Below, piece by piece: positions 33-61,628 of a stretch of 61,628 bases of DNA (the first letter of the stretch is position 1; every line of letters begins with the position of its first letter). The stretch comes from a virus. Where the stretch lies: the UHGV virus genome UHGV-1709118; one strand, written 5' to 3'. A program made the position numbers and the translations under genes. A model generated the notes under the pieces. That model worked only from the letters and a program-made list of their open reading frames with translations. It was not told the origin of the DNA and did no database searches.

Positions 33-59
33 CTGTAAAGTTACACAGTAAGGTTATAT

Positions 60-87
60 TGGCATTGGCCCTTTTGGGCCAATGCCA
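60..87 (+). promoter_or_regulatory. GC-rich stem-loop just downstream of VR (candidate DGR homing hairpin)
   Basis: perfect inverted repeat tggcattggccc-tttt-gggccaatgcca, 12-bp stem, no U-tract so not a typical terminator. Confidence 0.5.
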
Positions 88-148
88 TAGTATAAAAATG
101 CTTTCACCTTTTCTGGGAAAAATTTTTCTAAAAAAAATTTTTTTTCTT

Positions 149-177
149 TTGACTTTTTAAAAATTTTCTGATATAAT
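149..177 (+). promoter_or_regulatory. sigma70-like promoter upstream of avd-TR-RT operon
   Basis: TTGACT 149-154, 17-bp spacer, extended -10 TGaTATAAT 169-177; RBS aaggagg 197-203 before TTG start at 212. Confidence 0.5.
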
Positions 178-211
178 ATTACTTGTACGTTATTTAAAGG
201 AGGTTTTTAAT

Positions 212-676: not shown

Positions 677-699
677 TTTTTTATTCGGTTAAATTCTAA

Positions 700-814
700 A
701 AATATCGCGGGTCTCGCTACTACAACTCGAACAACACGAACAATGTGTGCAATGTCAACTCTGATGGTAATGCGAACAATACCAACTACAACAACAACAA
801 TTACCTCGCGCCCG
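700..814 (+). repeat. DGR template repeat (TR); 5-prime boundary approximate
   Basis: 3-prime end 800-814 identical to window 1-15; adenine-rich with many AAC codons in the VR-equivalent frame and no stop; GC-rich terminal block cctcgcgcccg. Confidence 0.7.
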
Positions 815-1121
815 ATTAGATGAGAACTCTAACTGTCTCTGGTGATGGAGCCGCAGGCGACATCGGCTGAGACGACTAAGTGTTACCCCAGAAAATTATA
901 ACCTATGTTATAACTCATCTATTTTTGGTATTTTCTGGACGCATTGGTTTTAAAACCAAGAAGGAGAGGAAATATTAAATAAAAGACTTAGATTATAATA
1001 GATAGCTTTCATTTAAGGAGAATTTAACCTTTTATCTATACAGATAATTAATTAAGATTGCGGATGTGCGTGTCAGAGCACACAATCTAGCACCGCATGA
1101 TAAAAAAAAGGAGAATTTTTT

Positions 1122-2354
1122 ATAGAAGAAAATCTTTTCCAGCGTTTTTGTAATTTTGACGCTTTTTATGATTCTTCTTATTCTATTTGCCGAAACGTAA
1201 GATGGAAAGATAGTACAGTTAATTTTGAAGAAAATAGATTAAATAACATCTTAACGCTTAAAGAACAATTAGAAAATGACAGTTATGAACAATTAGTTTT
1301 TAACAGTTTTAGTATAATTGAGCGGGGCAAACCTAGAGATATAAGAGCGTGCCATATTTATGACAGATTGGCACAAAATACATTATGTTCGCAAGTTCTT
1401 ATTCCAGAACTAACTCCAAAATTTATTTATGATAATTGTGCTACATTAAAAGGAAAAGGAATTGATTTTGCTTTGCTAGAAGTGCGTAAACATTTACAAG
1501 CAGCGCACAGAACATATGGTTTAGGAAAATCTTTTTATGGTTTAAGAATTGATATTCAAAAATTTTTTGATTCAATAGACCATAATTCTTTAAAGCAAAT
1601 GGCAAAACATTATATTAAAGAAAAACGAGTATTTAAATTAATTGATTATATTATTAATACCTTTTGTTTTTCAGTCACGAAAGATACAGTTCCTATTCCT
1701 GATAAACAATACTATATCATCAAAAAACAAAAATATAAGATAATTTATCCTAAACAATTTTATAAAAATTGTACTTATTATGAATTTAATCATAAAAGTT
1801 TAGGTTTAGGTAGTCAAGCATCTCAATTATTAGCTTTATTGGCATTAAATGGAATTGACCATTATGCAAAAGAGCATTTGCATTTAAAATATTATGGACG
1901 TTATATGGACGATATTTATATTTTGCATAATGACAAAGATTATTTAAAAGAATGTCTTAATAAAATTGAAAATGAATTAAATAAAATACATTTAAAATGT
2001 AACAAAAGAAAAACTAAAATAATTAAAATTAGTCCAATAAAACTAGATAAAAATAATTATCCTCATAAAAGACGTTCAGATAAACATAATCCATTTAAAT
2101 ATTTAAAATGGGATTTTTATTTAACTAATACGAATAAAATTATTCAAACTCCATTTAAAAAGAAAATAAAGCGACAATATAGAAAAATGAGAAAAATGCA
2201 CCAACTTTGGCTACAAGGTAAAATAACTGATATAGAAATTCAAGAATCATATCGAGGTTTTAGAGAACATATAAATAAAGGTACTACTTTTTATATTATA
2301 CAAAATCTTGATAATTATTTCCATTCATTATTTAAAGGAGTTGAAATATTATAA
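1122..2354 (+). CDS. DGR reverse transcriptase
   Basis: ORF track 1368-2354 has YMDD at 1902-1913 and LGSQASQ; open frame continues upstream to stop at 1101-1103 and encodes conserved N-terminal RT region (ERGKPRDIRACHIYDRLAQ); only ATA at 1122 follows RBS aaggaga, no ATG/GTG/TTG before 1368. Confidence 0.85.
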   Translation: MEENLFQRFCNFDAFYDSSYSICRNVRWKDSTVNFEENRLNNILTLKEQLENDSYEQLVFNSFSIIERGKPRDIRACHIYDRLAQNTLCSQVLIPELTPKFIYDNCATLKGKGIDFALLEVRKHLQAAHRTYGLGKSFYGLRIDIQKFFDSIDHNSLKQMAKHYIKEKRVFKLIDYIINTFCFSVTKDTVPIPDKQYYIIKKQKYKIIYPKQFYKNCTYYEFNHKSLGLGSQASQLLALLALNGIDHYAKEHLHLKYYGRYMDDIYILHNDKDYLKECLNKIENELNKIHLKCNKRKTKIIKISPIKLDKNNYPHKRRSDKHNPFKYLKWDFYLTNTNKIIQTPFKKKIKRQYRKMRKMHQLWLQGKITDIEIQESYRGFREHINKGTTFYIIQNLDNYFHSLFKGVEIL

Positions 2355-3013
2355 TGTATTTATTAATCAATAGAGAAAATATAGTAGTCGATATCCTCAC
2401 GGAAATCCGCTACATCAAATTACAATCCAACCCAAGTATTGTCATTGCTTGCTCGGAAGGTGAAGCTACAGGGGTAATAGGCTCAGATTGCAATAGCCAT
2501 TTCATTTTGGCTAATTCAGATATGACAGGTTCTATTGATGCAGTAAGAATTTTATCTTTTGATGGTAATATTCCAGAAGATTATGAACCTAATTTTTATA
2601 AATATGATAATGAAAAAAATGAATTAACATATTACTATTCTTTAGAAGAATACCAAAAAATGAAACAAGAAGAAAATAAAAAAGCTTTCGCTAATTTCCT
2701 TGTTAATCATCCTTTAACTTGGATTGATGGAAAGCAATATGGAGTTACAGAAGAAGACCAGGCAGAAATTAGCCTAAATATGAACCAATATTCTATGGCA
2801 ATTCAAGCTGGAGCCGAGAATCCTAGATTAGAATGGCATGCTCGCCAAGAAGAATGTACATCTTGGACAGTTGAAAATTTGACTGCTTTAACTTTAGCTA
2901 TTTCTGATTTTGTTTATCCTTATTATAGAAAAATGCAACAATATAAAACACAAATTTATACTGCTAAAAATTATAAGGAAATTAAAGCCATAGAATTAAA
3001 ATATGAAAATTAA
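2354..3013 (+). CDS. hypothetical protein, translationally coupled to RT (TAATG overlap)
   Basis: 219-aa ORF; ATG 2354 overlaps RT stop 2352-2354. Confidence 0.5.
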   Translation: MYLLINRENIVVDILTEIRYIKLQSNPSIVIACSEGEATGVIGSDCNSHFILANSDMTGSIDAVRILSFDGNIPEDYEPNFYKYDNEKNELTYYYSLEEYQKMKQEENKKAFANFLVNHPLTWIDGKQYGVTEEDQAEISLNMNQYSMAIQAGAENPRLEWHARQEECTSWTVENLTALTLAISDFVYPYYRKMQQYKTQIYTAKNYKEIKAIELKYEN

Positions 3014-3440
3014 TTCTTTTTTTAAAAATTCTATATTATTTTTGATTGGCGGAAGTATTTACTGGTTAATTGAATTTGTTTACAAAACATATATAAATTC
3101 AGGAAATACTCATTGGTCAATGTTTATCTTAGGCGGTTTATCTTTTTTAATTTTAGGTAGCTTAAATGAAAATATTCCTTGGAATTGGTCTTTATTAGCT
3201 CAAGGATTAATTGGAACCGCAATTATAACAAGTTTAGAATTTTTATTTGGATATATTTTAAACATTCAATTACAACTTAATATTTGGGATTATTCACATT
3301 TACCTTTTAATTATAAAGGACAAATATGTTTATCTTTTAGTTGTCTTTGGTTTATTCTAGGTCTAATAGGAATTATTTTAGATGATTTTCTTAGATGGAA
3401 AATCTTTGATGAAGAAAAACCTTATTATCATATTATATAA
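3003..3440 (+). CDS. small integral membrane protein (about 4 predicted TM helices)
   Basis: 145-aa ORF with four hydrophobic segments; overlaps previous gene by 11 nt. Confidence 0.5.
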   Translation: MKINSFFKNSILFLIGGSIYWLIEFVYKTYINSGNTHWSMFILGGLSFLILGSLNENIPWNWSLLAQGLIGTAIITSLEFLFGYILNIQLQLNIWDYSHLPFNYKGQICLSFSCLWFILGLIGIILDDFLRWKIFDEEKPYYHII

Positions 3441-3451
3441 AACAAAAAAAT

Positions 3452-3476
3452 GGGTAAGAGCATTTAGCTCTTACCC
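3452..3476. terminator. bidirectional rho-independent terminator between convergent DGR operon and tail operon
   Basis: gggtaagagc-attta-gctcttaccc with A-run upstream and T-run downstream. Confidence 0.65.
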
Positions 3477-3488
3477 ATTTTATTTTTA

Positions 3489-4091
3489 TTAACAATTATC
3501 TACGATAATAATGCCTATGCTATCAGTAGGTTTTTCTTTTATCTCAAAAGTAACTCCAAAGCCAGGAGTAGCAGTAGCCTTTTCAATTTTAGAATATTCT
3601 TCTAAATTACTGGTATAAGTAATAATTGGCGGAACCGTACCATCAGCACCACATTTCAAAGTTTCAATTAAATAAGACATTTTATAAACTTCTCCATCTA
3701 ATGTCCAAGCTCCTACGGACAATGTAGCAGGATAAGCCTTAGAAGTGACCTTATCAGTAGCAGTTTTAATATTATCACTTACTTCTGTTTTACTATAAAC
3801 ATCTAAATTGGTTCTTGCTTCAGCCGCAGTTTTACCACCAGTGCCACCATGTTCTATATCAATAATATCAGAATTTAAAACCAATTCTTCTGGATCAATT
3901 TCTATTTCAACTGTTCCAGCCGCATTAAATTTCCGAAGTTTCTCTGCATATCCCGCATTTAGTTTATGTCTAGCATTATTAAAATCGACATACATACAAT
4001 CATTTTCTTCTAGGATATAAGCATAAGACTCTTTGACTGCGACTTGGTTCATTTCAGCTTCTGTTCCATAAAAAACTTTAAATAAAGCCAT
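3489..4091 (-). CDS. tail-fibre-associated protein (last gene of tail operon)
   Basis: 200-aa ORF at distal end of minus-strand structural operon. Confidence 0.4.
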   Translation of the reverse strand: MALFKVFYGTEAEMNQVAVKESYAYILEENDCMYVDFNNARHKLNAGYAEKLRKFNAAGTVEIEIDPEELVLNSDIIDIEHGGTGGKTAAEARTNLDVYSKTEVSDNIKTATDKVTSKAYPATLSVGAWTLDGEVYKMSYLIETLKCGADGTVPPIITYTSNLEEYSKIEKATATPGFGVTFEIKEKPTDSIGIIIVDNC

Positions 4092-4162
4092 AATTTTCCT
4101 CCTTATATAAAAACATAAGGGGAAGAATAAAATCTTCCCCTTAGAAAAGAATATCTTATTCT

Positions 4163-6352
4163 TTAGTTTAATAAATCTGAAATTCTACCCCATGTATTAA
4201 TACTATTAATTTGGGTAATAATTTCTTCTATTTTTGTATCTAAAGTTTTAGCATTATATGTTTCTTTATCTTTATCTACTGGATTGGAATTAATTCTATT
4301 GCCGACAGTAGTAATTAAATTATCTATTACTTTAGCAGTGTAAGTACCTTTTGTTTTATCAGCAGGTTCATCACTGATTAAAGCTGCAACTTCATTTATT
4401 TTTGTTTGTAATGCTTCATTTTTCTCATTAATAGCTTTTGCGGTATAGGTTTTTCGCTCTAAATCCGCAGCTAAAATTTCATTAACAATTAAGTTATTAA
4501 TATAATTAGCCGTATATGTTTTATTAGTGCTATTATCTATATCATACTTATCTTGTAATAAGCTGGCTACACCACCAGTTAATTGCGCTCTTCCCCAAGC
4601 ATTATTTGTATAATAATACCAATATGCAGTATCACCATTTTCAACAGAAGAATAAGTCACTTGTAAAATTTCATCTGAACTTATACCATTAGGATAATAA
4701 GCTTTTAATTTATTTCCAATATTTTCAAGTGTATCAACACCATCTGCTTCAGTAAAAGTATATGAATTTTTAATATTAAGAGCTTTACCAACTGGGCCTT
4801 CTATGTTTTTATCAGTTTTAGTCCAAGCTGTACCATTAAATAAATATATATTACCTCTAAAATCATCTGTCATATCATCAACAGAATAAAGGTAATAGTC
4901 CCCATTTTGAGCGCCTTCAATAATAGTATTTAACTTATTATCATTCACTTCATCGCCGACAAACCAACGTGCGCCGCTAGGTAGTATAAATTTAAAATTA
5001 ATAGTATCAGTACCGACAATACTTTTTTCTACTGTTCCTTCATCTGCGGAACCAACATCTTCATAGGTAGAAGTAATATTTGGAATTGTTGGAAAAATAA
5101 ACTTATGAATAGGGCCAGTTTTTTCAATAGGGTCTTTATAACTAGACTCAATAGTAACGTCTACTCTTTCTCCTGATTCAGTAAATGGATCTTTTATATC
5201 AGTTTGTACTTCAGGAGTTTTACCAGCCAAACAAGCACAATAAACAAAAGTAGTAGAAGTTTCAGTAATCTGACTAATATAATAAATAAAACCAGTATCT
5301 TTATTTATATAATAATCTCCTACCTTCGCGTTAGGAACAATAGTACCTAAAGAATAAGTTATATCTTTTGATTGTCCTAATAAATCTCCATAAAAAAATT
5401 CTGCTGATTCTGGCAAATTAAAAGTAAACTGCGGATTATCGGGATCAGCAGAGATTTCAACTGTTGGTAATTCCGCAGGAGCTAAATGATTAGTAATAAC
5501 ATCAGTGCGGAATTTTTGTGAGCGTGGAATCTTTAAATGAATTGTTACTATGTGGTCATTATCATAGGTCAAAGAACATTCAGGTGTTTGACCTGGTTCT
5601 AAAGTGCTAAAATCAATAGGAGCAAAATCATAACCTTTAGGCAACCACATATTCAATTTTTTTGTTTGTTTATCTTCGTCTAAAGTAATCGTTGCCCTTG
5701 GCTCAGAATCCGCAGAAATATATTCAATATTTCCAATTTCAAATTCCCACATCTCTGGTAAAGTAAAAGTAATAATAGGATGATTAATATCATCTTCATT
5801 ATAATTTAATGTAGGAATAACAGTTTCGCCAGGTTTTTTGGTAATTAAATCTGCCATAACCATTACTTGACTTTGTGGCAAACTGAATAAAACCGAAGGG
5901 AAATCTGTATCGTTATTATCTACATCTACTGTTGGTTCTTGGTCTGCATTAAGAACAGTAGATGGCAAAATAATTTTAATTCTAGGAGTTTCACCAGTTA
6001 AAGAAGTAATTAATTTATAACCAAGACCATAATTTTTGTCTGACAAATATAAAATTTCTATCCCTCTAATTGGTTCTTCTCCTGCATGTTCTTCTTCAGT
6101 AAAAATTTTTTGCCAAAGAGTAGAATTATAAGCTCTTTTATATTTCGCAGTATCCACATCTTTATTAGCATCATAAATTGCTCGTTGCTCAGGAGTTCCA
6201 CCAGGTAGGCCATAAGAAATCATTACAATTTCTCCAACTCCAATAGGAGATTGCCATCTTTTGTCTAAATCGGCTACCATAGCAACTTTATTTTTAAATA
6301 TTTGTTTTATCTCAAAGTTTTTTCCTTGCTGTCCACCATAAAAACTAAACAA
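4163..6352 (-). CDS. tail fibre protein
   Basis: 729-aa ORF; C-terminal repeated motif K-x-Y-T-A-K-x-I-[DN]-x-x-I (4 copies); position in tail module. Confidence 0.55.
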   Translation of the reverse strand: MFSFYGGQQGKNFEIKQIFKNKVAMVADLDKRWQSPIGVGEIVMISYGLPGGTPEQRAIYDANKDVDTAKYKRAYNSTLWQKIFTEEEHAGEEPIRGIEILYLSDKNYGLGYKLITSLTGETPRIKIILPSTVLNADQEPTVDVDNNDTDFPSVLFSLPQSQVMVMADLITKKPGETVIPTLNYNEDDINHPIITFTLPEMWEFEIGNIEYISADSEPRATITLDEDKQTKKLNMWLPKGYDFAPIDFSTLEPGQTPECSLTYDNDHIVTIHLKIPRSQKFRTDVITNHLAPAELPTVEISADPDNPQFTFNLPESAEFFYGDLLGQSKDITYSLGTIVPNAKVGDYYINKDTGFIYYISQITETSTTFVYCACLAGKTPEVQTDIKDPFTESGERVDVTIESSYKDPIEKTGPIHKFIFPTIPNITSTYEDVGSADEGTVEKSIVGTDTINFKFILPSGARWFVGDEVNDNKLNTIIEGAQNGDYYLYSVDDMTDDFRGNIYLFNGTAWTKTDKNIEGPVGKALNIKNSYTFTEADGVDTLENIGNKLKAYYPNGISSDEILQVTYSSVENGDTAYWYYYTNNAWGRAQLTGGVASLLQDKYDIDNSTNKTYTANYINNLIVNEILAADLERKTYTAKAINEKNEALQTKINEVAALISDEPADKTKGTYTAKVIDNLITTVGNRINSNPVDKDKETYNAKTLDTKIEEIITQINSINTWGRISDLLN

Positions 6353-6365
6353 TTATAGCACCTCC

Positions 6366-6974
6366 TTAATAAATAAAATCTATAATTACATTATATAAAT
6401 CTTTATATGGATTTTCTGCATCAAGTTTATATACACCATTAATACCAGTATTATATTGCGCTAACGCCACTCGATAAGCTTCATCATATACAGCCTGAAT
6501 CTGATTATATTCAGCCCAGTAAGCATTATTATGTTCAGGATATTTTTTTTCAAGCTCTGCCATAGAAACTTTTCGAGCTGTTTCCGCAGCTTCTAATTTT
6601 TTCTTACCATCTGAAAGATTTTTTTCTGTTGTTTCAGTATCTAATATGTAATTTTTAGGGCGAAGAAAATATAATCCAGTAATAGCAATATCTTCATCCA
6701 ACTCATAAACTCCCGTGCGGCCTATCATAATATTTTTATTAGTATTCATTACTAATTTAGTACCAGGAGGAGCCTGTATTCCTACTTTAGAAAATTGTTT
6801 ACTTGCATAAATTTCTACTAGATTACGAGTAAAAATATCTATTTTATTAGTTTCATAATCTGGATCAGTAGCAGAAGTAATAGTTTGAGTAGTATTGCCA
6901 TTAGCTGTAGAAATATATCCGCCACTAGAATTATAATCTTCTAAATTATAAATTATCTGACCAACATTTGCCAT
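6366..6974 (-). CDS. tail/baseplate protein, hypothetical
   Basis: 202-aa ORF in tail module. Confidence 0.4.
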   Translation of the reverse strand: MANVGQIIYNLEDYNSSGGYISTANGNTTQTITSATDPDYETNKIDIFTRNLVEIYASKQFSKVGIQAPPGTKLVMNTNKNIMIGRTGVYELDEDIAITGLYFLRPKNYILDTETTEKNLSDGKKKLEAAETARKVSMAELEKKYPEHNNAYWAEYNQIQAVYDEAYRVALAQYNTGINGVYKLDAENPYKDLYNVIIDFIY

Positions 6975-6989
6975 TTAATTTATTCCTCC

Positions 6990-8885
6990 TTATACTCTAG
7001 TTAGCACTTCTGTAGCTGTAATTGACATTGTGCCTGAATAAGTTAAAGGTAAAGTAATTTGAGAAATCGCATAATTTCCTATAATATTACTTTCCATATC
7101 TTCTATATAAATAATATTATTTGGTTCTAAATAATACTTGGGTACTCCTTGTATAGTAACTTGAGTATTATAACTTAAATTTTGATATAATAATTCTCGA
7201 ATTTGATCAAAAGCACTAGAACCAGTAGAACTACTAGCAAAAATAGATTTATAATTATCAGTAATTCTAAAATATTTTTGACCAATAGAATCATAATATT
7301 TTCTTTTTTCTACATTTTCCCATTGTTCTTGGGTCATAAAAATAACATCAGGAACTTCTGTATTATATATACAAGTTACTTCAGAACTATTAATAACTTT
7401 TGTGCGACGTCCAATCATATTGACTGAGTATTTACCAATTGCTGCACCAGTATCTATAAAATCTAGCCAATAATTTAAATTTCTAGGGTCAGAATAAACT
7501 TTTGGATTCCAATTATCTGTTGCTTTCCAATCTGCATTTTCAGGGTCATATAAATTACGCCATTCAGCTAATAGTTCCATATCATAATTACTATTTGTTA
7601 AATTATTTAAGGAAGCAATTAAAGCTTGTCTATATAATTCTTCTCGCCATTCTTTACAAGGACTAGCTATTAATTTACCATTAACAGGAGGATTATTTGT
7701 ATAAGTAAATTCATATCTTAATAAAACTTCATTCTCATAAATACCCCACATATATTGTAAACAATAATTAAGAATTGGTTTAGCATCAATAGCTAAATGA
7801 TAACGAATATCTATTTCTGCACCATCTGTTGTTTTTCTTTTTCCCCATACAATAAAATCATTTTTAATTTCATCATATTTTGGAGCAATAGCAAGAGAAG
7901 TAATATTATCTAAATCAGTTAAACTATAAGCATATTTTGTGTTTGAATAATTCTGCACATAATCTTCAATATTTAAATCTAATAGCGGACTTCCAGTGTT
8001 TAAATAATTTTTCTTTTCTTGAAAAATAAAACGTCCATCTATATCATAAAAAAATTCAAAATTGCCTAAAATATCGCAAATCTTATTTAATAAAGTAACT
8101 ACACTATCGCCAGCTTTTAAAATCAATTCTCCAGGATAAGTAAAATCTGTTTCTTTATATCCAATATCTTGTCCATTTATAAACATATAAGGATAAGTAT
8201 CTCCAGGAGTATAACTTAAACTAGAATAATTATTACTTAGATATATAGGTTGTTCTCCAATATATTTTACTAAAAGTTTTGCGGTTTCCTCTAAATCTGT
8301 AATAAAAATATTGTTTATTGGCTCTTCTCCCCAATGATTAACTGCTTCTTGAATAATTTGGTAAATAGTAGGGTAATTAACTACTGCTTCTGTTTTATCC
8401 TTATTATACACATATGATTCATGGAAAGTAACAGAAGCAGGTAACATTCCACCTACACTACCATCTAGCATTACCATTTTATCTTTACCAGAAATACTAA
8501 TAGTCCAACCACCAGTTGCTCTAGTAATACTAGCAGTAGAAACCAAAAAAACCCCGCAAGGAAACCAAATAATTTCTCCATATTTTTGATATTCTCTTAA
8601 AGGATTATTATATCCAATTAAAATTTTAATTTTTTTATTTAAAGAAATATCATTATCTAAATTTGTTAAATCATTATTATTTAAATTAGCCAACATAGTT
8701 AAGCTAATAGTTCTTCTAATTGCGGAAGAACCATTAATTGATAATGAACCGGCAGTAATATTACCTTGAATTTCTTTAATAGGTTTTTCATCAAAAGAAA
8801 GAAGAATAAGTTTTGCATATTGAACGCGAACTCGCAATTTATCTAACTTGTTTAAAAAATCATAATCTTTAAGATATTCAAACAT
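6990..8885 (-). CDS. baseplate or tail-fibre protein
   Basis: 631-aa ORF in tail module. Confidence 0.45.
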   Translation of the reverse strand: MFEYLKDYDFLNKLDKLRVRVQYAKLILLSFDEKPIKEIQGNITAGSLSINGSSAIRRTISLTMLANLNNNDLTNLDNDISLNKKIKILIGYNNPLREYQKYGEIIWFPCGVFLVSTASITRATGGWTISISGKDKMVMLDGSVGGMLPASVTFHESYVYNKDKTEAVVNYPTIYQIIQEAVNHWGEEPINNIFITDLEETAKLLVKYIGEQPIYLSNNYSSLSYTPGDTYPYMFINGQDIGYKETDFTYPGELILKAGDSVVTLLNKICDILGNFEFFYDIDGRFIFQEKKNYLNTGSPLLDLNIEDYVQNYSNTKYAYSLTDLDNITSLAIAPKYDEIKNDFIVWGKRKTTDGAEIDIRYHLAIDAKPILNYCLQYMWGIYENEVLLRYEFTYTNNPPVNGKLIASPCKEWREELYRQALIASLNNLTNSNYDMELLAEWRNLYDPENADWKATDNWNPKVYSDPRNLNYWLDFIDTGAAIGKYSVNMIGRRTKVINSSEVTCIYNTEVPDVIFMTQEQWENVEKRKYYDSIGQKYFRITDNYKSIFASSSTGSSAFDQIRELLYQNLSYNTQVTIQGVPKYYLEPNNIIYIEDMESNIIGNYAISQITLPLTYSGTMSITATEVLTRV

Positions 8886-8899
8886 ATTCTTCCTCCTCT

Positions 8900-11638
8900 T
8901 TATCCACCAACATTTTTAGTAGTTTGCATTGTAGCACATTTATAATTTATAATTGCATAGGTAGGTTTTTCAAAACGAATACCTTTTATTAAAGTATCAG
9001 AAGGGTTCAAAATATATTTTTCAGTCGCACCGATTGTTATTTGAGTAGTTGAACCATCATTATTGTCAAGTAATAATACACTACCTTGGTCTGCTTCAAT
9101 TTCCATAGATAATATATCAGTAAAATTATAAAAAATAGTTCCATTATCCCAAGTATCAGTATCTTTATCATAATTAGAAAAACCATTTTCTATATCATAA
9201 ATTTCTTCTATTTGAAATCTACTTTTTTCTTTAACAATATCAAAAATATTTTCAGATTTAAATAAATCAAAATTAATATTATCATAGTCCCCATTTATAT
9301 CAGGAATTTGATATTGCTTTATATCATTATATCTAAAGTTATAACTCAATAAAGTTTTATCAGTAGAAGTAAAAATTCCAGCTAATTGACCCCATACTAA
9401 AGAAGTTTCAATAGCTTGAACTGTTTTAGAAATATCTTCCACTTGTGTAACTTTACAAGTATAATTTATAATAATAGGGCCACTGTATTTTAAATAGATA
9501 TTAGATAAATTATCAAAAACATCTTGTAAAACAAAAACTTTATTCTTGCCTAAAGAAAAATCTTTACCATTAATAACTAATGTAATTAAAGGATAAGTTT
9601 GTTCAGTAGTTATAAAATTAATTAACTTATTATATTCAGCGATTTTTTCATCAACTTCTTTTGTTGATAATCCCTGATGTGCTAAATCTGCGCGTTCCGC
9701 ATTTAATTCTCTTAATTCAGCTTCAAAAGTTAATACAGGATATTGTTCTACCCAAATTGAAGTTAAATTATTAAATTTATATCTATAACCACCGCCAACA
9801 TTATATTCAACTTGTTCTTTTATTTTTTCCAAAAGATTTTCTTTAGTATTATTATTTATAATACTTGTAGGTCTATCAGTATTTAAATTATTATTTAAAC
9901 TTAAAGTGCCAATATACATTCCACTTAATTGACCAAATAAATCTACAGTTTCTTCAGCAGAAAATTCTTCAAAATTACCTATATCAATAATATTTAAATT
10001 ATTTAAATTACTTAAATTAAAATCCGCAACTTCATAAGCAGTAGCAGAAAATTTGTAAATCATTCTACTTAATGTTTTTTCAGGACTTAAAGAAATATTC
10101 ATTAAATTTATAATAATATTTCCTTCTGTCGCAGATTTATATAATTTACTACTTCCATCATTTAAAAATTCTTCTACTTTATCTCTAAAAATTTTTTCAA
10201 TAAAAATATTACTATGTGTTAGATTAGTATCTATTTTTCTTTCAATAGTAGTATCTTCAATATTATCAAAAGGAATAATCAACTTATTTTTATAATAATA
10301 CCCATCTCTTCTAAGTTCAAAGAAAGTATTATCATCATCCATGTGAAAAGAAATTAATCCTGAAACAGGAAATTCTGCATAATAAGCATGACCATTGCGG
10401 AAAATGGTAGGATACTTAGAACCCAATGTATCACTCTTTGACTCTAAGACACTATGTTTAAAACTGGATAACTCAAAATTATATTCTAATTTTAATTGAA
10501 CTCCATCTTTATATAAATAACTATGTTCAAAGTTAATTCCTCTAGCAGGTTTATCAATTTCAAATAAAGGAGAAGTCCGCAATCTTGCACTATTTTCTTG
10601 CTGAAAAGCATATTTATATTTAATGCCATTTTCAATAGTGTAATCAGTATAAATTAATTCATTGACAAAAGTATGGTTAGAATATAAGAAATAACTTAAA
10701 TCTTCCCATATTGTATAATTACTTTTTTCAGAAGTTCTAATTAATACATAATTACCACTTAAAGGAGAATCAGAATTTATATATATCTTTAAACAAGCAT
10801 TTTCTATACATGAAATATCTGAATCATCAACATTAAGGGTTACTCCAACTAATTGACTTAAATATGTCTCTCTTGCCTGAAAATTATATCGTGCAGAACT
10901 AATTTCATAACCATTTATTGAAACAATTTGATAAATAACACTATAATCTTGTCCATTTTCTAAAACAGTAGAAAAACGATGTGAATCTGTATTATCTGCG
11001 GAAGCATTATGTTGCAACCAACCACTATCTTCAATTTTATCACCATGCGAATTATATAAAATAAATTTATATTTATCTACTGACTCCCTATTACTTGTAA
11101 CAAAATTGCAAGCTCCTATAATCAGTGGTGTTAAAGAAGTTTCAAGATTTTTTGCTGATTGAACGCTTTCTTTCACAGAAGTAGCATTTTTTATTTCAAT
11201 TACTGGCTCATTAATAGCTTTTATTGCCATAACTGTTGACCATTCAGAAAATGCACTTTTTTCTATTTGCTGTTTTTTCCAATTAGCAAAATCTGATATT
11301 GAATTATAAAGTGTATTTATGCCAAAACGCAATTGTACCTTATATAATTCTCCAGCACTCCATCCAGATTCTAAATCTTGTAAATTTATAGAAATAGTAT
11401 ATTGTGAGCCTTTTTGACCAATTTCATCTTTCGATTTATAAATAATTCCATCTGGATAAATAGAAGTATTTACTATTGTTCTGTTATTAGTTTGTTTTAC
11501 TAATCTAATTTGAATATGTTTTATACTACTTAAAGACATCAAATCAGGTAATGTAAAATAAATAATATAGTCAGAAACATCATAAGTAAAAGCAGGCTGC
11601 GAACTATTTATCAATGGAGGAAAAATACCAGTTGCCAA
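8900..11638 (-). CDS. large tail/baseplate protein
   Basis: 912-aa N/Y/I-rich ORF downstream of tail tip gene. Confidence 0.45.
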   Translation of the reverse strand: MATGIFPPLINSSQPAFTYDVSDYIIYFTLPDLMSLSSIKHIQIRLVKQTNNRTIVNTSIYPDGIIYKSKDEIGQKGSQYTISINLQDLESGWSAGELYKVQLRFGINTLYNSISDFANWKKQQIEKSAFSEWSTVMAIKAINEPVIEIKNATSVKESVQSAKNLETSLTPLIIGACNFVTSNRESVDKYKFILYNSHGDKIEDSGWLQHNASADNTDSHRFSTVLENGQDYSVIYQIVSINGYEISSARYNFQARETYLSQLVGVTLNVDDSDISCIENACLKIYINSDSPLSGNYVLIRTSEKSNYTIWEDLSYFLYSNHTFVNELIYTDYTIENGIKYKYAFQQENSARLRTSPLFEIDKPARGINFEHSYLYKDGVQLKLEYNFELSSFKHSVLESKSDTLGSKYPTIFRNGHAYYAEFPVSGLISFHMDDDNTFFELRRDGYYYKNKLIIPFDNIEDTTIERKIDTNLTHSNIFIEKIFRDKVEEFLNDGSSKLYKSATEGNIIINLMNISLSPEKTLSRMIYKFSATAYEVADFNLSNLNNLNIIDIGNFEEFSAEETVDLFGQLSGMYIGTLSLNNNLNTDRPTSIINNNTKENLLEKIKEQVEYNVGGGYRYKFNNLTSIWVEQYPVLTFEAELRELNAERADLAHQGLSTKEVDEKIAEYNKLINFITTEQTYPLITLVINGKDFSLGKNKVFVLQDVFDNLSNIYLKYSGPIIINYTCKVTQVEDISKTVQAIETSLVWGQLAGIFTSTDKTLLSYNFRYNDIKQYQIPDINGDYDNINFDLFKSENIFDIVKEKSRFQIEEIYDIENGFSNYDKDTDTWDNGTIFYNFTDILSMEIEADQGSVLLLDNNDGSTTQITIGATEKYILNPSDTLIKGIRFEKPTYAIINYKCATMQTTKNVGG

Positions 11639-47228: not shown

Positions 47229-47462
47229 TAATTGCGGCGGCGCGCACACGACCATGGCCTCCCAGTGTGCGCCGAAATTCTGTCAATACGCAAATTGCAC
47301 AAAAATTTAGAGGAAAGTTTGGTGATTTTGCCCAGAAGTATTCATCCCGAAATGGTGTTTGTTTATAAAAAGTATAGCGGCAAAATATCATCAAAATTGA
47401 TTATTGAATTTCTTAAAAATTTTTGTTATAATAATTACAGAAAACAAAAGGAGGTCAAAAGT

Positions 47463-50011: not shown

Positions 50012-50263
50012 TAATAAAACCGGCTTATTTTTTATAGGCCGGTTTTCTTTTTTGCCCAATACTTTTTAATGGCAAATGTTTGACGGCCCGCGCATGGTCA
50101 AGCGCTGCCGCATTTCAATTATACCAGGTAATCCGACTTTTGTCAATGGGCAAACCGCACAATTATTTGACTTTTTGTTTTCCCAAAATTGGTGATTCTG
50201 CCTATTGATTTTTTTATTAAAATTTTATATAATATAATTGTTCCAAGGGAAAGGAGAAACAAA

Positions 50264-51776: not shown

Positions 51777-51980
51777 ATGACAGATTTTGCAAGAACTGAA
51801 ATTCTTCTTAAAGCTTTACAGGAAGCAGGAAGATACATGCGGAAATATTTACCCGCAGAAATGCCATTAGGCGAAGATGCTGATATTACAAGATACTGTT
51901 TAATAAATGGTAATCAAGACCCGGAAGGCTCTAAGTTTGTAGAATACTTCATTCTTAAAGCATTTGATAATTATAAGTAA
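51777..51980 (+). CDS. hypothetical early protein
   Basis: 67-aa ORF after promoter TTGACA 51722-51727 and RBS aaggaga. Confidence 0.45.
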   Translation: MTDFARTEILLKALQEAGRYMRKYLPAEMPLGEDADITRYCLINGNQDPEGSKFVEYFILKAFDNYK

Positions 51981-52226
51981 GGGCTAAAAGCCCTTACTTT
52001 TTTATTTCTATATTTATTATAAACAAAAGTCAAGTGATAGTAAAGTTTGGCGGCGCGTTGATGGCTGACATGCGCCGCAATTTAATTATACCTCAAGCCA
52101 CGCCTTTTGTCAAGAGCAAAAGTGCATAAAAACAAGGCAGACAAAAATCCCGAATTTGTGCATTTCGCCAATAGACAAATAAGACCTGCCGTGTTATACT
52201 ATAATCACAGTAAGGGAGGAGATAAC

Positions 52227-52937: not shown

Positions 52938-53336
52938 ATGAAAGCTACTGGTATCATTCGCCGCATCGATGACCTGGGTCGGGTGGTCATCCCCAAGGAA
53001 ATCCGCCACAATATGCACATCTGGGAAGGAGACCCTTTGGAGATTTATACTGCTTCGGATGAAATTGTTCTCCGCAAGTATGTTCCATCCGCAGAAAACA
53101 AGGCTTCTATTGCTCAGAAGTGGTTAGAGGACAATGCTCATATGTTATATGGCACTTCTGCAAAGTTCAGTATTGAGGGCAGAACTACTGTTTGCGAAGT
53201 TATCAGCAATAATCATCGCCTGACTGGAAAAGCAACAGCCACAACAAATGACACTTTCATTCCCGCGGTTGGTATGGTTATTGCTTATTGCCGAGCCGTT
53301 GGTTGGACTATTCCCAAAGAACTTATTGAGGATTAA
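52938..53336 (+). CDS. AbrB/SpoVT-family transcriptional regulator-like protein
   Basis: N-terminus GIIRRIDDLGRVVIPKEIRHNMHIWEGDPLEIY...IVLRKY matches AbrB swapped-hairpin domain signature. Confidence 0.6.
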   Translation: MKATGIIRRIDDLGRVVIPKEIRHNMHIWEGDPLEIYTASDEIVLRKYVPSAENKASIAQKWLEDNAHMLYGTSAKFSIEGRTTVCEVISNNHRLTGKATATTNDTFIPAVGMVIAYCRAVGWTIPKELIED

Positions 53337-54613: not shown

Positions 54614-54835
54614 ATGCTGTGTATGAAGAACGTGTTCAATGTCATGAAAGGTATCACTCGCGTAAGAGATAAGTTCAGAGGAAAAGGGTTCACTTTTTCT
54701 GAGTATAGCACCGATGACTATCAGAATTACTTACGTTATTTACAGACTGCGTTTGAATTAAAAACTATGGACAAAGAGCAGGAACTTGACAAATTGAAAG
54801 CTAATCTTGACAAAGTGGAAAAGGAAATGAGATAA
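54614..54835 (+). CDS. hypothetical small protein
   Basis: 73-aa ORF; bidirectional-type terminator 54841-54867 follows. Confidence 0.45.
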   Translation: MLCMKNVFNVMKGITRVRDKFRGKGFTFSEYSTDDYQNYLRYLQTAFELKTMDKEQELDKLKANLDKVEKEMR

Positions 54836-54881
54836 AAAAATGAGGGATTTTTCCCTCATTTTTTTTTGTACATTTTGCCTA

Positions 54882-54910
54882 TTGACAAAACCGCAGCTTT
54901 ATGGTACAAT
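54882..54910 (+). promoter_or_regulatory. promoter driving ORF-free GC-rich hairpin transcript
   Basis: TTGACA 54882-54887, 17-bp spacer, TGgTACAAT 54902-54910. Confidence 0.5.
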
Positions 54911-55020
54911 GGCGCGGCGCCCACGGCTGTGGAGCGCCGAAATTTCAATTATACCACGCGGCACAAAATTTGTCAAGAGTTAAACTGCACAAAATCTATT
55001 TGGGAAAAATCCCACTTTTT
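54911..55020 (+). ncRNA. candidate small RNA (5-prime GC hairpin, weak terminator)
   Basis: promoter immediately upstream; hairpin 54911-54939; gggaaaaatccca + T-run at 55001-55020; no RBS-ATG ORF. Confidence 0.3.
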
Positions 55021-56782: not shown

Positions 56783-57101
56783 CGGTTACCAAAGGATAGT
56801 GGTTAATAGCCACTATCCTTTTTTATCCCTATACTTGTTATAAGCAAAAGTAAAGTAATAACAAAACTCAGCGGGCCGCACTTGGTGGATGCGGCCCGAA
56901 TTCGCGTCAATACACATTTTCCACAATTTTTCTGCTTTTGATTTGTACAATTTTACTTATTGACATTTTCCTAAAATTATGTTATTATATAATCACAAAA
57001 GGAAAGGGGATTTAAAAATTTCAAAAAAATAAAAAAGGTCTTGACAAACCAGGGCAAAGATGCTATAATGAATACAGAAATTAAGGAAAGAGGTTGATAG
57101 T

Positions 57102-58623: not shown

Positions 58624-58740
58624 ATGACCTGTGAATTATTAAAGGCACTTGCGGTGATTATTGAATACTGCTTAAAGCAGGATAATTGCAAAGTTTGTGT
58701 TATGCGTGATTTCTGTTCTAAGATGCCTTGTGAGTGGTAA
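58624..58740 (+). CDS. Cys-rich mini-protein (38 aa, not in ORF track)
   Basis: ATG 58624 after aaggaaaggag; CxxxxC...CxxC pattern. Confidence 0.3.
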   Translation: MTCELLKALAVIIEYCLKQDNCKVCVMRDFCSKMPCEW

Positions 58741-58827
58741 ATTACTTTAAAGATTTTAGAGATAGAAAGGCCCGTTTTAGGGTCGAAATTTCGCACGTCT
58801 AGGTCATCAGAAAAAAAATATCTGGAT

Positions 58828-59028
58828 ATGTTGAAAACTGAATTTGCCAGAAAGCTGGACTCGACTGGTCGATTAGTTATCCCTTCTAAGTTAAGAGATT
58901 ATCTAGGAATGGAAACCGGCCAGTTATTTACTTTTTATATTCAAAAAGAAGAAAATGGAGATGTGTATTTGTGTGTGAAGTGTCCTAGTAATAAAATAAA
59001 ATTTACTTTTGGTGAAAATGCCGATTGA
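58828..59028 (+). CDS. AbrB/MazE-like small DNA-binding protein
   Basis: RKLDSTGRLVIPSKLRDYLGMETGQLFTFY matches AbrB/SpoVT swapped-hairpin signature. Confidence 0.5.
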   Translation: MLKTEFARKLDSTGRLVIPSKLRDYLGMETGQLFTFYIQKEENGDVYLCVKCPSNKIKFTFGENAD

Positions 59029-59053
59029 CATAAGGCTGGTTTTATGGTATACT
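59025..59053 (+). promoter_or_regulatory. promoter for ORF-free transcript
   Basis: TTGACA 59025-59030, 17-bp spacer, TGgTATACT 59045-59053. Confidence 0.55.
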
Positions 59054-59059
59054 ATATAT

Positions 59060-59205
59060 AAGGAGTGGCGGGCTGTGGACAGTGGTCACAGCCCGAAATC
59101 CCCTTTCCACTAGCATATGGCGATTTTTCTAGACTTCTAGCGACCCTTCATATGGCCGGGGTTTTTCCCGAAAGTGGCTCACCCGCTCGGGAAAAATTTT
59201 TTTTA
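59060..59205 (+). ncRNA. candidate small RNA (about 145 nt)
   Basis: consensus promoter upstream; 9-bp GC hairpin 59069-59095; terminator-like hairpin plus T-run 59156-59204; no plausible ORF. Confidence 0.35.
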
Positions 59206-59408
59206 ATTTGTCAAGTCAAAGCCCGCATTTGACTTTTTAAAAATTTAAGGCATAAAAAAAAATCAACTTGACTTTTCAAAAAATAAAAGAAAAAATAAAG
59301 TCAAGTTGATTAATAATTAAAAATATTATATAATATTTATATAAACAAAAGGAAAAAGAAAAAGAGATTGCATATGCCCGCTCGGTTTGTTGAAAGTGAG
59401 GTTAGAGC

Positions 59409-60116
59409 TTAAAATGCGGATTCATACAAGTCATGATCGGTTGATCTAACTAACATTTTTCCAGTCTCATCTCTAAATTTGAATATTACATCCTGAAATG
59501 TACCTTCAAAAGCAAGGCGATCCGCGTGATTTAAATATTCTTCTTTAGTCATGTCAGTTTTTCTAAATTCTTTTTCTAGTAATACCATACGTTGAATAAT
59601 TTCTGGCTTATCACCAAAAATAGCGGTAGTATATTCATCAAAGATTCTTTGCTCCTCTGGAGTTAAATCTCGATAGGGTTTGCCGTTTACTGCTTTATCA
59701 AGCTTAATACCCCACTGATATTTGCGGGTTCCATAGATACCCTTGCTGATTTCATCAGCGGTAACTCCAAATCCTATCACTCCAGCTTTGGTCATACGGC
59801 GTCTTCTTTGACTATCAGTTAATTTAGCATATTGTGGCAAAGAACTAATTTCTTCTGCTATATTAGAAATAGAATTAAGAGGATATTTACGCACTTGGTC
59901 TAAATAAACTTGAACATCTTGTGATAAATCACCTTGATATTCATCAATATAAATTTCTTTTACAATAATACCTCCATATACTTCTTCATAATCACAGTAA
60001 TCTTTTAAGAAAGGCATTACTTGTGATTTCTTTTTGCTTTTAAAAAAGTTATAAGTATAACCAAACCAATCGGCTAACTCTCTTGACGTAATTTTACCTA
60101 ATTGTAATTGTTTCAT
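59409..60116 (-). CDS. helix-turn-helix regulator-like protein, divergent from early genes
   Basis: 235-aa ORF; N-terminal LGKITSRELADWFG resembles an HTH. Confidence 0.45.
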   Translation of the reverse strand: MKQLQLGKITSRELADWFGYTYNFFKSKKKSQVMPFLKDYCDYEEVYGGIIVKEIYIDEYQGDLSQDVQVYLDQVRKYPLNSISNIAEEISSLPQYAKLTDSQRRRRMTKAGVIGFGVTADEISKGIYGTRKYQWGIKLDKAVNGKPYRDLTPEEQRIFDEYTTAIFGDKPEIIQRMVLLEKEFRKTDMTKEEYLNHADRLAFEGTFQDVIFKFRDETGKMLVRSTDHDLYESAF

Positions 60117-60283
60117 TTTATTTTGTCTCCTTTTAAAAAAATTTTTTATATTTGGGCAAAACCTAATAGTGGATACTATTTATGCACTCTCTTATATTTC
60201 TCTAACGGTGTGCATGTTTGATATCTACTATCTTAATTAAATAAAATTGCTACTTTTACTTCACTACTCTACTTATAATAACG

Positions 60284-60355
60284 TAAATAAGTCATCCTTT
60301 GGATGACTTATTTACTAAGGAATAATAAATCGACCTTTGGTCGATTTATTATTCC
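60284..60355. repeat. two tandem perfect AT-rich palindromes (14- and 17-bp arms, each with ttt centre)
   Basis: taaataagtcatcc-ttt-ggatgacttattta and ggaataataaatcgacc-ttt-ggtcgatttattattcc. Confidence 0.6.
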
Positions 60356-60528: not shown

Positions 60529-61083
60529 ATGTCTACTTATAAGGTTAATGATTGCTGTAACGCCTCTACTGCCGAGCTTAACTCTTCTTGCAACTGCAAG
60601 ACTACTATGAAGTTTGAGGACTATATTGTGGACGAGCTGCGCAAGGGCAAGTCTATGGATGAAATTATGAAGTATATCTCTGAGCGAGCTAATGCCGCGG
60701 AGTCTACTTTTAAAGCAGAGCAAAATAAAAAGAAGAGTTTTTGGTTGGTGAAGACTCCTGTTGAGGGTGATAGAGATTTCATTTTTGGTAATCTGCATGT
60801 AAAGATTAATGATGCTCTTGTTCATTTGAGTAATGGTAAGATTACTACTGAAGATTTCATTATTCTTTTGATTGAGGGTCTTTATCAGATTGCTCCTGCT
60901 ATGCGCCCTATGCTTGATGAGATTAGTCTTGATGATGATAGTATTAATCTTCTGGCTGAGAGCATGAATAAGGAATTGAGCAAGATGGATAAGCTTTTCT
61001 CTGTTGCTAAGGCTTTTAGTAATGAGACTGATGATGACGCAGAAAGAATTAATAAGTTTTTGGACTCTCTCACTCTACTGTAA
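60529..61083 (+). CDS. hypothetical protein
   Basis: 184-aa ORF; terminator hairpin 61082-61101. Confidence 0.45.
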   Translation: MSTYKVNDCCNASTAELNSSCNCKTTMKFEDYIVDELRKGKSMDEIMKYISERANAAESTFKAEQNKKKSFWLVKTPVEGDRDFIFGNLHVKINDALVHLSNGKITTEDFIILLIEGLYQIAPAMRPMLDEISLDDDSINLLAESMNKELSKMDKLFSVAKAFSNETDDDAERINKFLDSLTLL

Positions 61084-61162: not shown

Positions 61163-61275
61163 AAGCACCTCTCCATTTTAGAATATTTTAAGAGATTTTA
61201 TTATAAGCACCTCTCCATTTTAGAATATTTTAAGAGATTTTATTATAAGCACCTCTCCATTTTAGAATATATTTT
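61163..61275. repeat. 42-bp direct tandem repeat, about 2.7 copies (iteron-like)
   Basis: unit aagcacctctccattttagaatattttaagagattttattat at 61163, 61205 and partial at 61247. Confidence 0.7.
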
Positions 61276-61628
61276 AATAAAAACACTTCTCTAATTCGTA
61301 AACCCTTTCTTTTAATCTTCTTTATTTCCATTGAAAAAATAACTTTCAAGGTGATTTTCCCCACTACTTCTTTAAAAACCATTGCAAAAAATCTCTCCTC
61401 TAGTGTCTTTTGATGAGAAAAAACGCTATATCACAATTCGCCAATTAGAAAAAAAATCAACTCAAACTTTTAAACTGGCATCCTCACGAACCTATCTCCT
61501 TTCCGAAGATAATTCCTCTTTGAAAATAGAACGAATCCACGTCTTTAAAAACCGAGAGAATAAACATTTTCTCTCCTTCAAATACACTAATCCCATTGAT
61601 TTCCAAATCTGGGTAAAAGAGTATACTA

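Follow-up and report, generated by a model that had tools for sequence, protein, structure and literature searches.

What is the role of a stretch of phage DNA that has a near-consensus promoter and a terminator, and no conserved gene lying between them? The question is raised by positions 59025 to 59215 of the UHGV virus genome UHGV-1709118, a DNA of 61,628 nucleotides (nt) that we call the window. A first-pass annotation made from the letters alone took this stretch to be a unit encoding a free-standing small non-coding RNA (sRNA). Comparison with the sequences of related phages indicates that what has been conserved is a single-copy non-coding locus, so far undescribed, and that the unit is a short local version of it. 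Below we set out the unit itself, the features that are kept in its relatives, and the possible roles of the locus.

The transcription unit

The unit begins with promoter P1 (59025-59053, plus strand), a sigma-A-type promoter with TTGACA at 59025-30, a spacer of 17 nt, TG at 59045-46 and the -10 element TATACT at 59048-53. It matches the consensus at 11 of 12 positions with an extended -10 (TGgTATACT), and is the top site between 57.5 and 61.6 kb. The first-pass annotation had placed TTGACA-17-TGgTATACT over the stop codon of the open reading frame (ORF) 58828-59028; this is confirmed, with the TGA of the promoter falling within the stop. P1 is present in 12 of 12 near-identical genomes, with variation at two positions of the spacer. 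It is not unique, sharing its class with 17 perfect early-region promoters. These lie between 41.6 and 61.6 kb, each matching TTGACA-17/18-TATAAT at 12 of 12 positions, with 14 on the plus strand and most having the TG, and the same region contains 101 promoter-like sites where 61.5 would be expected. Several of the early-region consensus promoters are followed by a Shine-Dalgarno (SD)-like sequence and no start codon; an example is 56960-57013, directly after which there is a second promoter at 57041-57069.

The RNA predicted from P1 runs from ~59060 to ~59204, a length of ~145 nt, and the start near 59060 and the length given by the first-pass annotation are both borne out by the positions of the promoter and terminator. 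We consider it very likely that a non-coding transcript is real in this genome. Its first 100 nt have a GC content of 54%, the 99.6th percentile of the window, and this GC-rich unit adjoins a stretch of 12% GC at 59252 that ranks in the top three 100-nt windows of the whole sequence for AT content. The fold of the complete transcript is unexceptional (z = -1.9, with 11 of 200 shuffles equally good). At its 5′ end is the SD-like sequence AAGGAG (59060-59065, plus strand), 9 nt upstream of a GTG at 59075. This is mutated to AAAGAG in L014 and to AAGGAA in L020 (L numbers denote the related sequences), and it may serve as a 5′ stabilizer rather than as a translation signal. An SD-like sequence at the 5′ end and a 5′-proximal hairpin are both known types of 5′ stabilizer in Firmicutes. 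The hairpin at the other end of the RNA would protect it as well.

The GTG opens an ORF of 12 codons (59075-59113), the start codon of which is buried in the 11-bp stem of hairpin 1 described below. Among 12 siblings its stop codon is lost in L013 and L018, and a serine is changed to phenylalanine in L012 and L019. There are two other small ORFs, one of 55 codons starting with GTG (59065-59232) and one of seven codons starting with ATG (59117-59140, MAIFLDF). A tblastn search with the 55-residue peptide gave chance hits and no homologs. The seven-codon ORF begins at the ATG of box 1 (see below) and lacks an SD sequence; it has counterparts MAIFFYF in the L129 group and MQIFCYF in L097, and extends to 15, 28 or more codons in other lineages. 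The first-pass annotation had listed ORFs of 7-27 codons without a ribosome-binding site. The absence of a conserved ORF stands, while the AAGGAG before the GTG and the existence of a 55-codon ORF amend the rest. A conserved peptide translated from the region, which had been named as the finding that would overturn the proposal, was looked for in siblings and diverged lineages and none was found. By these comparisons the stretch is non-coding.

The RNA belongs to none of the families that we searched for. Rfam 15 gave no match at the gathering score in the whole window, a permissive Rfam search of the plus strand from 58700 to 59500 returned nothing with E below 9, ARAGORN found no tRNA or tmRNA genes in the window, and the whole RNA has no paralogs in the window. 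Type I toxin-antitoxin systems occur in the related phage SPbeta, as bsrG/SR4 and yonT/SR6. Here there is no short hydrophobic ORF on either strand between 59000 and 59400, and the RNA overlaps no other predicted transcript. As to a riboswitch or other cis-acting leader, the terminator lacks a co-oriented gene directly 3′ of it; in that position are an AT-rich spacer, a second promoter and a convergent gene, and the next gene on the plus strand, at 60529, has a promoter of its own.

A covarying hairpin at the 5′ end

The 5′ part of the unit (59067-59097, plus strand) consists of GGC, a 25-nt hairpin (59070-59094) and GAA, with C59069 and G59095 forming a closing pair. A GC-rich hairpin of 9 bp at 59069-59095 had been noted by the first-pass annotation. 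It is there, and extends to 11 pairs arranged as nine, a bulge and two. This hairpin 1 has a folding energy of -18.8 kcal/mol (z = -3.65), and none of 200 shuffles was as good. The first clue that it belongs to a family was a weak nhmmer match in L057, in which promoter, GGC, hairpin and GAA follow in the same order with compensatory changes. In the window and 59 related loci, hairpins of the form C-GG...CC-GAA are found 55 times on the gene (plus) strand and three times on the other.

For the analysis of pairing we chose 31 distinct copies of the hairpin without reference to pairing, the length of 25 nt being set by the selection pattern. The ends C-GG...CC-GA are invariant in all 31. Paired cells amount to 85.5%, compared with 73.3% in shuffles and 26-43% when the alignment is slid. 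Compensatory changes are seen at six of the ten pairs, with 41 double-change cells against an expectation of 15. The covariation score of the family is 0.35 versus 0.145, and none of 500 shuffles scored as high. In the solid part of the stem G·U oppositions on the plus strand number 11 and A·C oppositions four. The copy in the window has U-A at a position where most have C-G, and two siblings show the C·A intermediate. A match to the hairpin pattern in L072, a high-GC contig, was dropped as unrelated.

A conserved single-copy locus

Four sequences were used to build a profile for the search, and IMG/VR and metagenomes were then scanned. Homologs of the whole unit were found in at least 10 diverged lineages, comprising the L129 group, L097, the L100 group, L098, L063, L101, L057, L005/6, L180, L184, L204, L209 and L210. 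In the window the whole unit is single-copy. Contigs of a metagenome pattern group, Ga0056133/5, were rejected as chance matches without the hairpin. In distant phages the unit is syntenic with the family of minus-strand genes that neighbors it here.

The position of the promoter relative to hairpin 1 differs between lineages. In the L129 group, L098, L209 and L210 a perfect promoter stands directly against the hairpin, and in L180 one lies 11 nt upstream of it. The promoter matches at 10 of 12 positions in L057, is weak in the L100 group and is absent in four lineages. Since the promoter abuts the hairpin in most relatives, the RNA of these phages would start inside the 5′ arm of the hairpin.

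Downstream of hairpin 1 there are blocks that are held at fixed offsets. The C-rich linker AUCCCCUUUCCACUAG that directly follows it (59098-59113, plus strand; predicted to be unpaired) is not conserved in distant homologs. Next is box 1, CATATGGCGATTTTT (59114-59128, plus strand). In 11 of the 13 diverged homologs its counterpart, CATATGGCRATTTTT, is found 47-49 nt from the GGC, and L005 and L006 have CATTTATG at 45 nt. Box 2, CATATGGC (59149-59156, plus strand), lies at an offset of 72 to 83 nt in relatives. The B4 motif TTTTTCCCGAAA (59162-59173, plus strand), which here doubles as the 5′ arm of the terminator, contains the sequence CCCGAAA. This lies 100-101 nt from the GGC in 13 of 13 aligned homologs, and the sequence between box 1 and CCCGAAA has diverged. 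The 61.6 kb contain the motif CATATGSC three times, in each case on the plus strand and between 59114 and 59378, and relatives have two to five CATATG boxes together with the lineage-specific repeats CCGATCGG and CCCGTTCGG.

The third box, GCATATGCCC (59367-59400, plus strand), is part of a segment with ...GAAAGTGA that by eye resembles positions +130 to +165 of the element found in L081-type phages. A 9-mer, CCCGCTCGG, occurs twice, at 59184-59192 and 59376-59384. The two copies flank ~190 nt that are missing from the L081-type element, namely the 3′ half of the terminator, the spacer, an inverted repeat and the second promoter. They could result from an insertion with target duplication, or the 9-mer could be another repeated box. 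L204 has three copies of a related sequence, CCCGTTCGGTAAAAA.

Beyond hairpin 1 the evidence for conserved structure in the RNA is slight. Box 1 (59114-59120) can pair with box 2 (59148-59154) to form hairpin 2, which alone has an energy of -7.8 kcal/mol with z = -0.3. It can form in most lineages. Its seventh pair is G·U in most, while L100 has G-C and L098 has C-G at this position, and L175 carries an A-to-G change that still pairs, as G·U. This pairing is weak evidence because the boxes are palindromes. A structure and covariation analysis, recommended by the first-pass annotation, supports hairpin 1, and RNAalifold applied to 13 homologs supports this hairpin alone. A third hairpin carrying CCCGAAA in its loop was considered and discarded, as the minimum-energy folds around CCCGAAA are inconsistent between lineages.

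The terminator is a local feature

The terminator lies at 59159-59204 on the plus strand, with a stem at 59159-59199, a core at 59162-59196 and a run of eight U (U8) at 59197-59204. In the window it folds with an energy of -19.3 kcal/mol (z = -2.4). A simple terminator scan missed it because of an interior loop. The A/T-run terminator that had been proposed near 59192-59204 is thus present, as a hairpin followed by U8. It is composed of the conserved TTTTTCCCGA, a lineage-specific complement TCGGGAAAAA and the U8.

Outside this genome the terminator is mostly weak. Ten of the 12 siblings, >97% identical, have CGGAAAAAAA through a G-to-A change that reduces the folding energy to -12.3 kcal/mol (z = -0.2). 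In this form the hairpin competes with alternatives, and the terminator form has an energy of ~-9.5 kcal/mol. The window and L020 are the only genomes in which it is strong. Of the diverged relatives whose 3′ end resembles this one, L204 is the closest; the hairpin there is weak and the promoter is one module further upstream, and a compensatory terminator suggested by eye received no support from folding. The L081-type distant relatives lack the terminator, and their non-coding region runs for 300-420 nt to a second promoter. With a terminator that is weak in most siblings and absent in distant relatives, the unit does not appear to be conserved as a self-contained sRNA gene. From these comparisons, a promoter-to-terminator unit is a good description of this genome and is not the conserved entity. 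Of the small non-coding RNA first proposed there remain the non-coding nature and, in this genome, the promoter and terminator; its conservation as a free-standing sRNA gene is not supported.

The hairpin is part of a repeated module of fixed length

Part of the locus recurs elsewhere as a module that consists of RGC, a 25-nt covarying hairpin, GAAWTTT, and CCCGAAA placed 72±1 nt past the hairpin. When CCC(G/A)NAA was located within 110 nt past the hairpin, the offset was 71 nt in three cases, 72 nt in 38 and 73 nt in nine, with one elsewhere. The spacing of 72±1 nt therefore accounts for 50 of 51 occurrences, and it holds whatever promoter or box fills the interior. In many modules the interior is a perfect promoter on the minus strand, in the order TTGACA-17-TGGTATAAT-GGAAAATTC-hairpin, and in others it is a plus-strand promoter with CCCAAAA in the spacer. 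In a few, a plus-strand consensus promoter also abuts the hairpin, so that two promoters are placed face-to-face across it.

The window contains at least six module hairpins, at 47239 (35 nt), ~50086, 52049, 54915, 56873 and 59070, with module spans at 47236-47352 and 56870-56990, and there are ~50 modules in related loci. Perfect 12/12 promoters on the minus strand at 50146, 52113 and 54976 each fire through the hairpin of a module. The corresponding minus-strand spans (50016-50146, 51975-52113 and 54834-54976) are predicted to give ORF-less RNAs of 95-108 nt, ending at the bidirectional terminator of the upstream plus-strand operon. At 54882-54976 promoters on the plus and minus strands face each other across the hairpin. 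Since the same skeleton recurs in multi-copy modules with promoters in either orientation, it points to an architecture that functions at the level of DNA.

The region downstream

The terminator is followed by an AT-rich spacer (59209-59311) of 12-21% GC with TTGAC/GTCAA repeats. It includes a perfect inverted repeat of 15 bp (59261-75/59297-311), which on the minus strand is followed by T9. The repeat, 59261-59311, is likely to be the terminator of the convergent gene, and if the mRNA of that gene ends there the RNA from P1 does not overlap it.

Promoter P2 (59306-59334, plus strand) comprises TTGATT, 17 nt and TATAAT, matching at 10 of 12 positions. It faces the 3′ end of the convergent gene, which it would transcribe in antisense, and the same arrangement is found in L081-type phages. 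Equivalents of P2 (TTGATT/TTGACA-17-TGNTATAAT) bound the non-coding stretch in L081, L098, L209, L210 and L212. Across the lineages this stretch extends for 145-420 nt as far as P2. Past P2, L098 has a plus-strand gene, and in L081/L175, L209 and L210 the gene lies on the minus strand and shares a family with the neighbor here. The relationship is given by blastp at 1e-6 for L081/L175, and by identities of 71% for L209 and 63% for L210.

That neighbor, 59409-60116 on the minus strand, encodes a protein of 235 amino acids that is possibly winged-helix-like. The first-pass annotation called it a divergent helix-turn-helix gene that the RNA might regulate. The gene is in fact convergent with the unit, and the helix-turn-helix assignment is not supported, the protein having no match in Pfam, NCBIfam or PHROG. 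An AlphaFold model (mean confidence, pLDDT, 88.7) has an N-terminal beta-alpha-alpha-beta-beta arrangement that resembles a winged helix, and a Foldseek search of the model against the PDB gave nothing significant (best E 0.047). The N-terminus is thus only weakly suggested by the model to be winged-helix-like. A pattern search for relatives of the protein in IMG/VR found none.

The gene is a swappable cassette. In phages that are >97% identical, its place is taken by genes encoding 235, 210 (L001 3585-4217) or 267 amino acids (L020 3550-4353), the latter two appearing unrelated, and the non-coding unit is unchanged across the swaps. The breakpoints lie at ~59357-59397, in the region of P2 and box 3, and near a pair of terminators at 60283-60355, outside the hairpin modules. 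Gene X (60529-61083) was considered as a conserved downstream partner and rejected, as it has no homolog in the related loci.

The phage

The phage is large and AT-rich, the window having a GC content of 32.3%. Its large terminase shares 48% identity with those of Enterococcus and Geobacillus siphophages of 134-142 kb and of the human-gut phage Phass-1, with YonF of the SPbeta group a more distant relative. By this protein the phage would be placed among the SPbeta/YonF-type siphophages of Firmicutes. An IMG/VR contig of 137.7 kb, L001, is ~98% identical to the window around the non-coding unit. The minus strand carries structural genes as far as ~41 kb, and from 41.6 kb there are small plus-strand genes of unknown function. 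The early and late genes diverge at ~41.4 kb, and the non-coding locus, at 59 kb, is at the end of the early cluster away from this point.

The ORF that ends within P1 (58828-59028, plus strand) is MraZ/AbrB/MazE-like, with a Pfam MraZ score of 24.4 against a gathering score of 23. The 66-residue protein encoded just upstream of the unit was found in 104 blocks of an assembly collection, mainly in human-gut samples. A second AbrB/MazE-like gene (52938-53336, plus strand; phrog_4681, E 1e-21) is likewise in the early region. Use of the AbrB-like gene as an anchor for synteny yielded near-identical relatives, or distant ones without the RNA, and its adjacency to the non-coding unit is not conserved among relatives. 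When a host was sought by genome scan, the sole match was a contig of one unclassified metagenome-assembled genome. In a blastn search of 50,697 cultured phage records the region around position 59 kb and the L081-type element had no match, and a module with a minus-strand promoter gave generic promoter similarity at most.

Two further regions of the window were noted. An ORF of 328 amino acids at 1368-2354 (plus strand), beside tail genes, matches the PHROG family 'Reverse transcriptase' (E 2e-57) and may belong to a diversity-generating retroelement; no direct repeats of at least 40 nt that could be its template and variable regions were found in 1-9000. At 61163-61288 a 42-nt unit is repeated three times in tandem (two perfect, one 69% identical). 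L001 has different tandem repeats at the equivalent position (5440-5700), and many related contigs stop within 1-2 kb of this point. The repeats could be an origin, a pac site or a repeat that breaks the assembly.

What the locus may do

Our preferred explanation is that the RNA is the terminated non-coding early leader of a conserved control locus, the information of which lies mostly at the level of DNA. We hold this tentatively, and somewhat short of an even chance. It is ranked first because the features that have been kept are a hairpin that in most relatives would not be part of the RNA from the adjacent promoter, blocks at fixed offsets and a cluster of short direct repeats. Early in infection the host RNA polymerase would fire from P1. 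The 5′ end of the RNA would carry the SD-like AAGGAG and a tight GC-rich hairpin, and the polymerase would then cross the two CATATGGC boxes and CCCGAAA and stop at the terminator hairpin and its U8. Stopping there would keep strong antisense transcription from running on into the AT-rich spacer, P2 and the convergent gene. Box 1, CCCGAAA and the CATATG boxes would most simply be sites bound by a DNA-binding protein of the phage, which would control initiation at P1 and P2, or read-through. The hairpin would belong to the repeated promoter and stem-loop modules that punctuate the early region, and the RNA itself would be a by-product, or a cis-acting part, of the control region.

Some observations weigh against this explanation. 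The excess of G·U over A·C in hairpin 1 mildly favors folding as RNA or as a single-stranded plus strand. The persistence of the pairing in hairpin 2 makes an RNA-level role beyond hairpin 1 possible. The cassette gene is swapped while the boxes stay, so its product is not an obvious binding partner for them. Finally, the share of sites that vary among the siblings is only somewhat lower in the RNA, at 9.0%, than in the spacer, at 13.6%.

The next explanation is that the RNA acts in trans, which we regard as unlikely without being negligible. Stabilized by its 5′ hairpin and its 3′ terminator, it would pair with mRNAs of the phage or host through either the linker UCCCCUUUCC, which is anti-SD-like, or the palindromic CAUAUG boxes, the candidate targets being SD regions and the 3′ untranslated region or antisense partner of the convergent gene. 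The promoter, the terminator, the GC-rich island, the lack of a conserved ORF and a linker predicted to be unpaired are as expected for such an RNA, and ribosome-binding sites in this phage are GGAAAGGAG-like. CCCGCTCGG with a CATATG box recurs at 59371-84, in the region of the 3′ untranslated region of the convergent gene, and the excess of G·U over A·C on the plus strand is also in its favor. The linker (59096-59108) has a perfect complement of 13 nt, GGAAAGGGGATTT, at an SD-like site lacking a start codon (57001-57013). However, this 13-mer is not significant (BLAST E 0.43) and the RNA and target do not covary among siblings, so that the site was rejected as a target. The linker is unconserved in distant homologs, the terminator, apart from that of L020, is weak or missing in other genomes, transcription would start inside hairpin 1 in most relatives, and consensus structure is supported for hairpin 1 only.

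By analogy with lactococcal phage c2 (Ceduovirus), the locus might be an origin of replication that is activated by transcription. The c2 origin is a non-coding region between the promoters PE1 and PE2, the transcript of which, PE1-T, is needed for replication (PMC7150918). Both loci are relatively GC-rich, ORF-less stretches of a few hundred nucleotides between two early sigma-A promoters, with a hairpin near the 5′ end of the first transcript. In the phage studied here the transcript from P1, the CATATGGC boxes as iteron-like elements and the region of 12-21% GC as an unwinding element would make up the origin. The layout of P1, non-coding stretch and P2 is found here and in at least five lineages, the single-copy locus has its boxes in direct repeat, and a very AT-rich 100-nt window is adjacent. 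In c2 a 25-nt hairpin soon follows EP1 as well: CCTAAGG...CTTAGG (L208 975-1005, minus strand) is ~22 nt past the EP1 -10 element, followed by AATTGAG and TATATG. The resemblance of this hairpin to the module is probably superficial. The c2 origin lies between the early and late clusters, whereas the present locus is away from their divergence at ~41.4 kb and has no replication genes nearby. The spacing of the boxes is irregular, there is no sequence similarity to c2 or to any cultured phage, the skeleton of hairpin, 72 nt and CCCGAAA is multi-copy, and the arrays at 61163-61288 are an equally plausible origin. We rate an origin here as less probable than an RNA acting in trans.

Short terminated transcripts are familiar in other phages, as with the 6S RNA of lambda made from PR′ to tR′, and oop RNA. 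These too are ORF-less units running from promoter to terminator beside regulatory genes, the short RNA being the default product at a control point. Thus the leader might be one that awaits antitermination or attenuation, in the manner of lambda PR′-tR′ or put of HK022, with P1 constitutive. A phage factor, or pairing between GGGGUUUUU and AAAUCCCC, would let the polymerase pass the terminator. In the ancestral layout it would then reach genes further downstream, and in the present one it would run across the convergent gene in the antisense direction. The promoter-proximal hairpins followed by a terminator fit this, as does the competition of the alternative pairing with the 5′ arm of the terminator; L098 has plus-strand genes after P2, and the G/A polymorphism among siblings would tune the strength of termination. 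Yet gene 60529 has its own promoter and is behind two bidirectional terminators, the alternative pairing is not conserved in relatives, and no antiterminator gene was identified in this phage. This seems to us a little less probable again than the origin.

It is also improbable that the locus is an empty or decayed regulatory cassette, a module resembling the PeSL cassettes discussed below that was left without a gene after recombination and is transcribed without function. Modules of this family recur through the early region, the adjacent gene has been replaced among siblings, and the layout of the P1 -10 element, ATATATA and the SD sequence is the same as in promoters that drive genes (families D1 and D3). 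Moreover, sequence comparison shows the internal minus-strand promoter of the module to be recognizably decayed here. Against decay, the interior is kept without a promoter, and box 1 and B4 have retained their fixed offsets, single-copy, in at least 10 lineages. Fixed offsets kept across so many diverged lineages indicate selection rather than decay. Last, a translated micro-ORF (12 codons from the GTG, or seven from the ATG) is very improbable: AAGGAG does stand 9 nt before the GTG, and the seven-codon ORF does recur in the L129 group and L097, but the GTG lies in a stem, the stop, serine and SD sequence change in siblings, and the seven-codon ORF varies in length and has no SD, its phenylalanine codons being accounted for by a conserved T-run.

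Relation to known systems and significance

Besides the c2 origin and the short lambda transcripts, two described systems can be compared with the locus and its modules. The PeSL elements are composite terminator/promoter stem-loop cassettes of T4-type phages (PMC2839356, PMC4122927), and by analogy they would be the nearest described counterpart of the modules. In both systems a small intergenic stem-loop with a host-type early promoter is repeated among small early genes of unknown function. In T4-type phages genes are replaced between close relatives with breakpoints in or near the motifs; the cassette swap in the phage studied here may be comparable, its breakpoints lying in the region of P2 and box 3 and near the terminator pair, outside the hairpin modules. 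This phage belongs to an unrelated group, of the SPbeta/YonF-terminase type, so that the likeness is one of analogy only. The present modules differ in being of fixed length, and in often having a perfect promoter on the opposite strand that fires into the hairpin.

The second system is SPBRE, the repeated 15-bp operator of MrpR, the master repressor of SPbeta, which was predicted from sequence long before the protein that binds it was known (PMC10516654). SPBRE is likewise a repeated intergenic motif of promoter regions, in a related class of large Firmicute siphophages. It is placed over ~10 promoters, whereas CATATGSC is here confined to one locus and it is the skeleton of CCCGAAA and hairpin that is multi-copy.

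Promoter and stem-loop cassettes, and non-coding early transcripts at control loci, are thus already known kinds of element. The exact spacing of 72 nt, and perfect promoters placed face-to-face across a covarying hairpin, are unusual. It is possible, if doubtful, that the fixed-length modules, the facing promoters and the very short RNAs constitute an undescribed regulatory system of a widespread clade of large human-gut siphophages, of which the locus would be the master control point, as an origin or an RNA switch.

Large uncultivated phages of Firmicutes are abundant in the human gut, and their early regions are almost wholly unannotated. The locus and its family of modules provide a testable handle on how early transcription is organized in these phages, with perfect host-type promoters by the dozen, convergent pairs of promoters, and swapped gene cassettes alongside. 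With their 72-nt spacing and promoters facing each other across a hairpin, the modules are of interest for research on phage transcription, and if the short RNAs are functional they would represent a family absent from Rfam. If the single-copy locus is borne out as an origin or a switch, it could usefully serve as a marker for this group of phages and as a site for their engineering.

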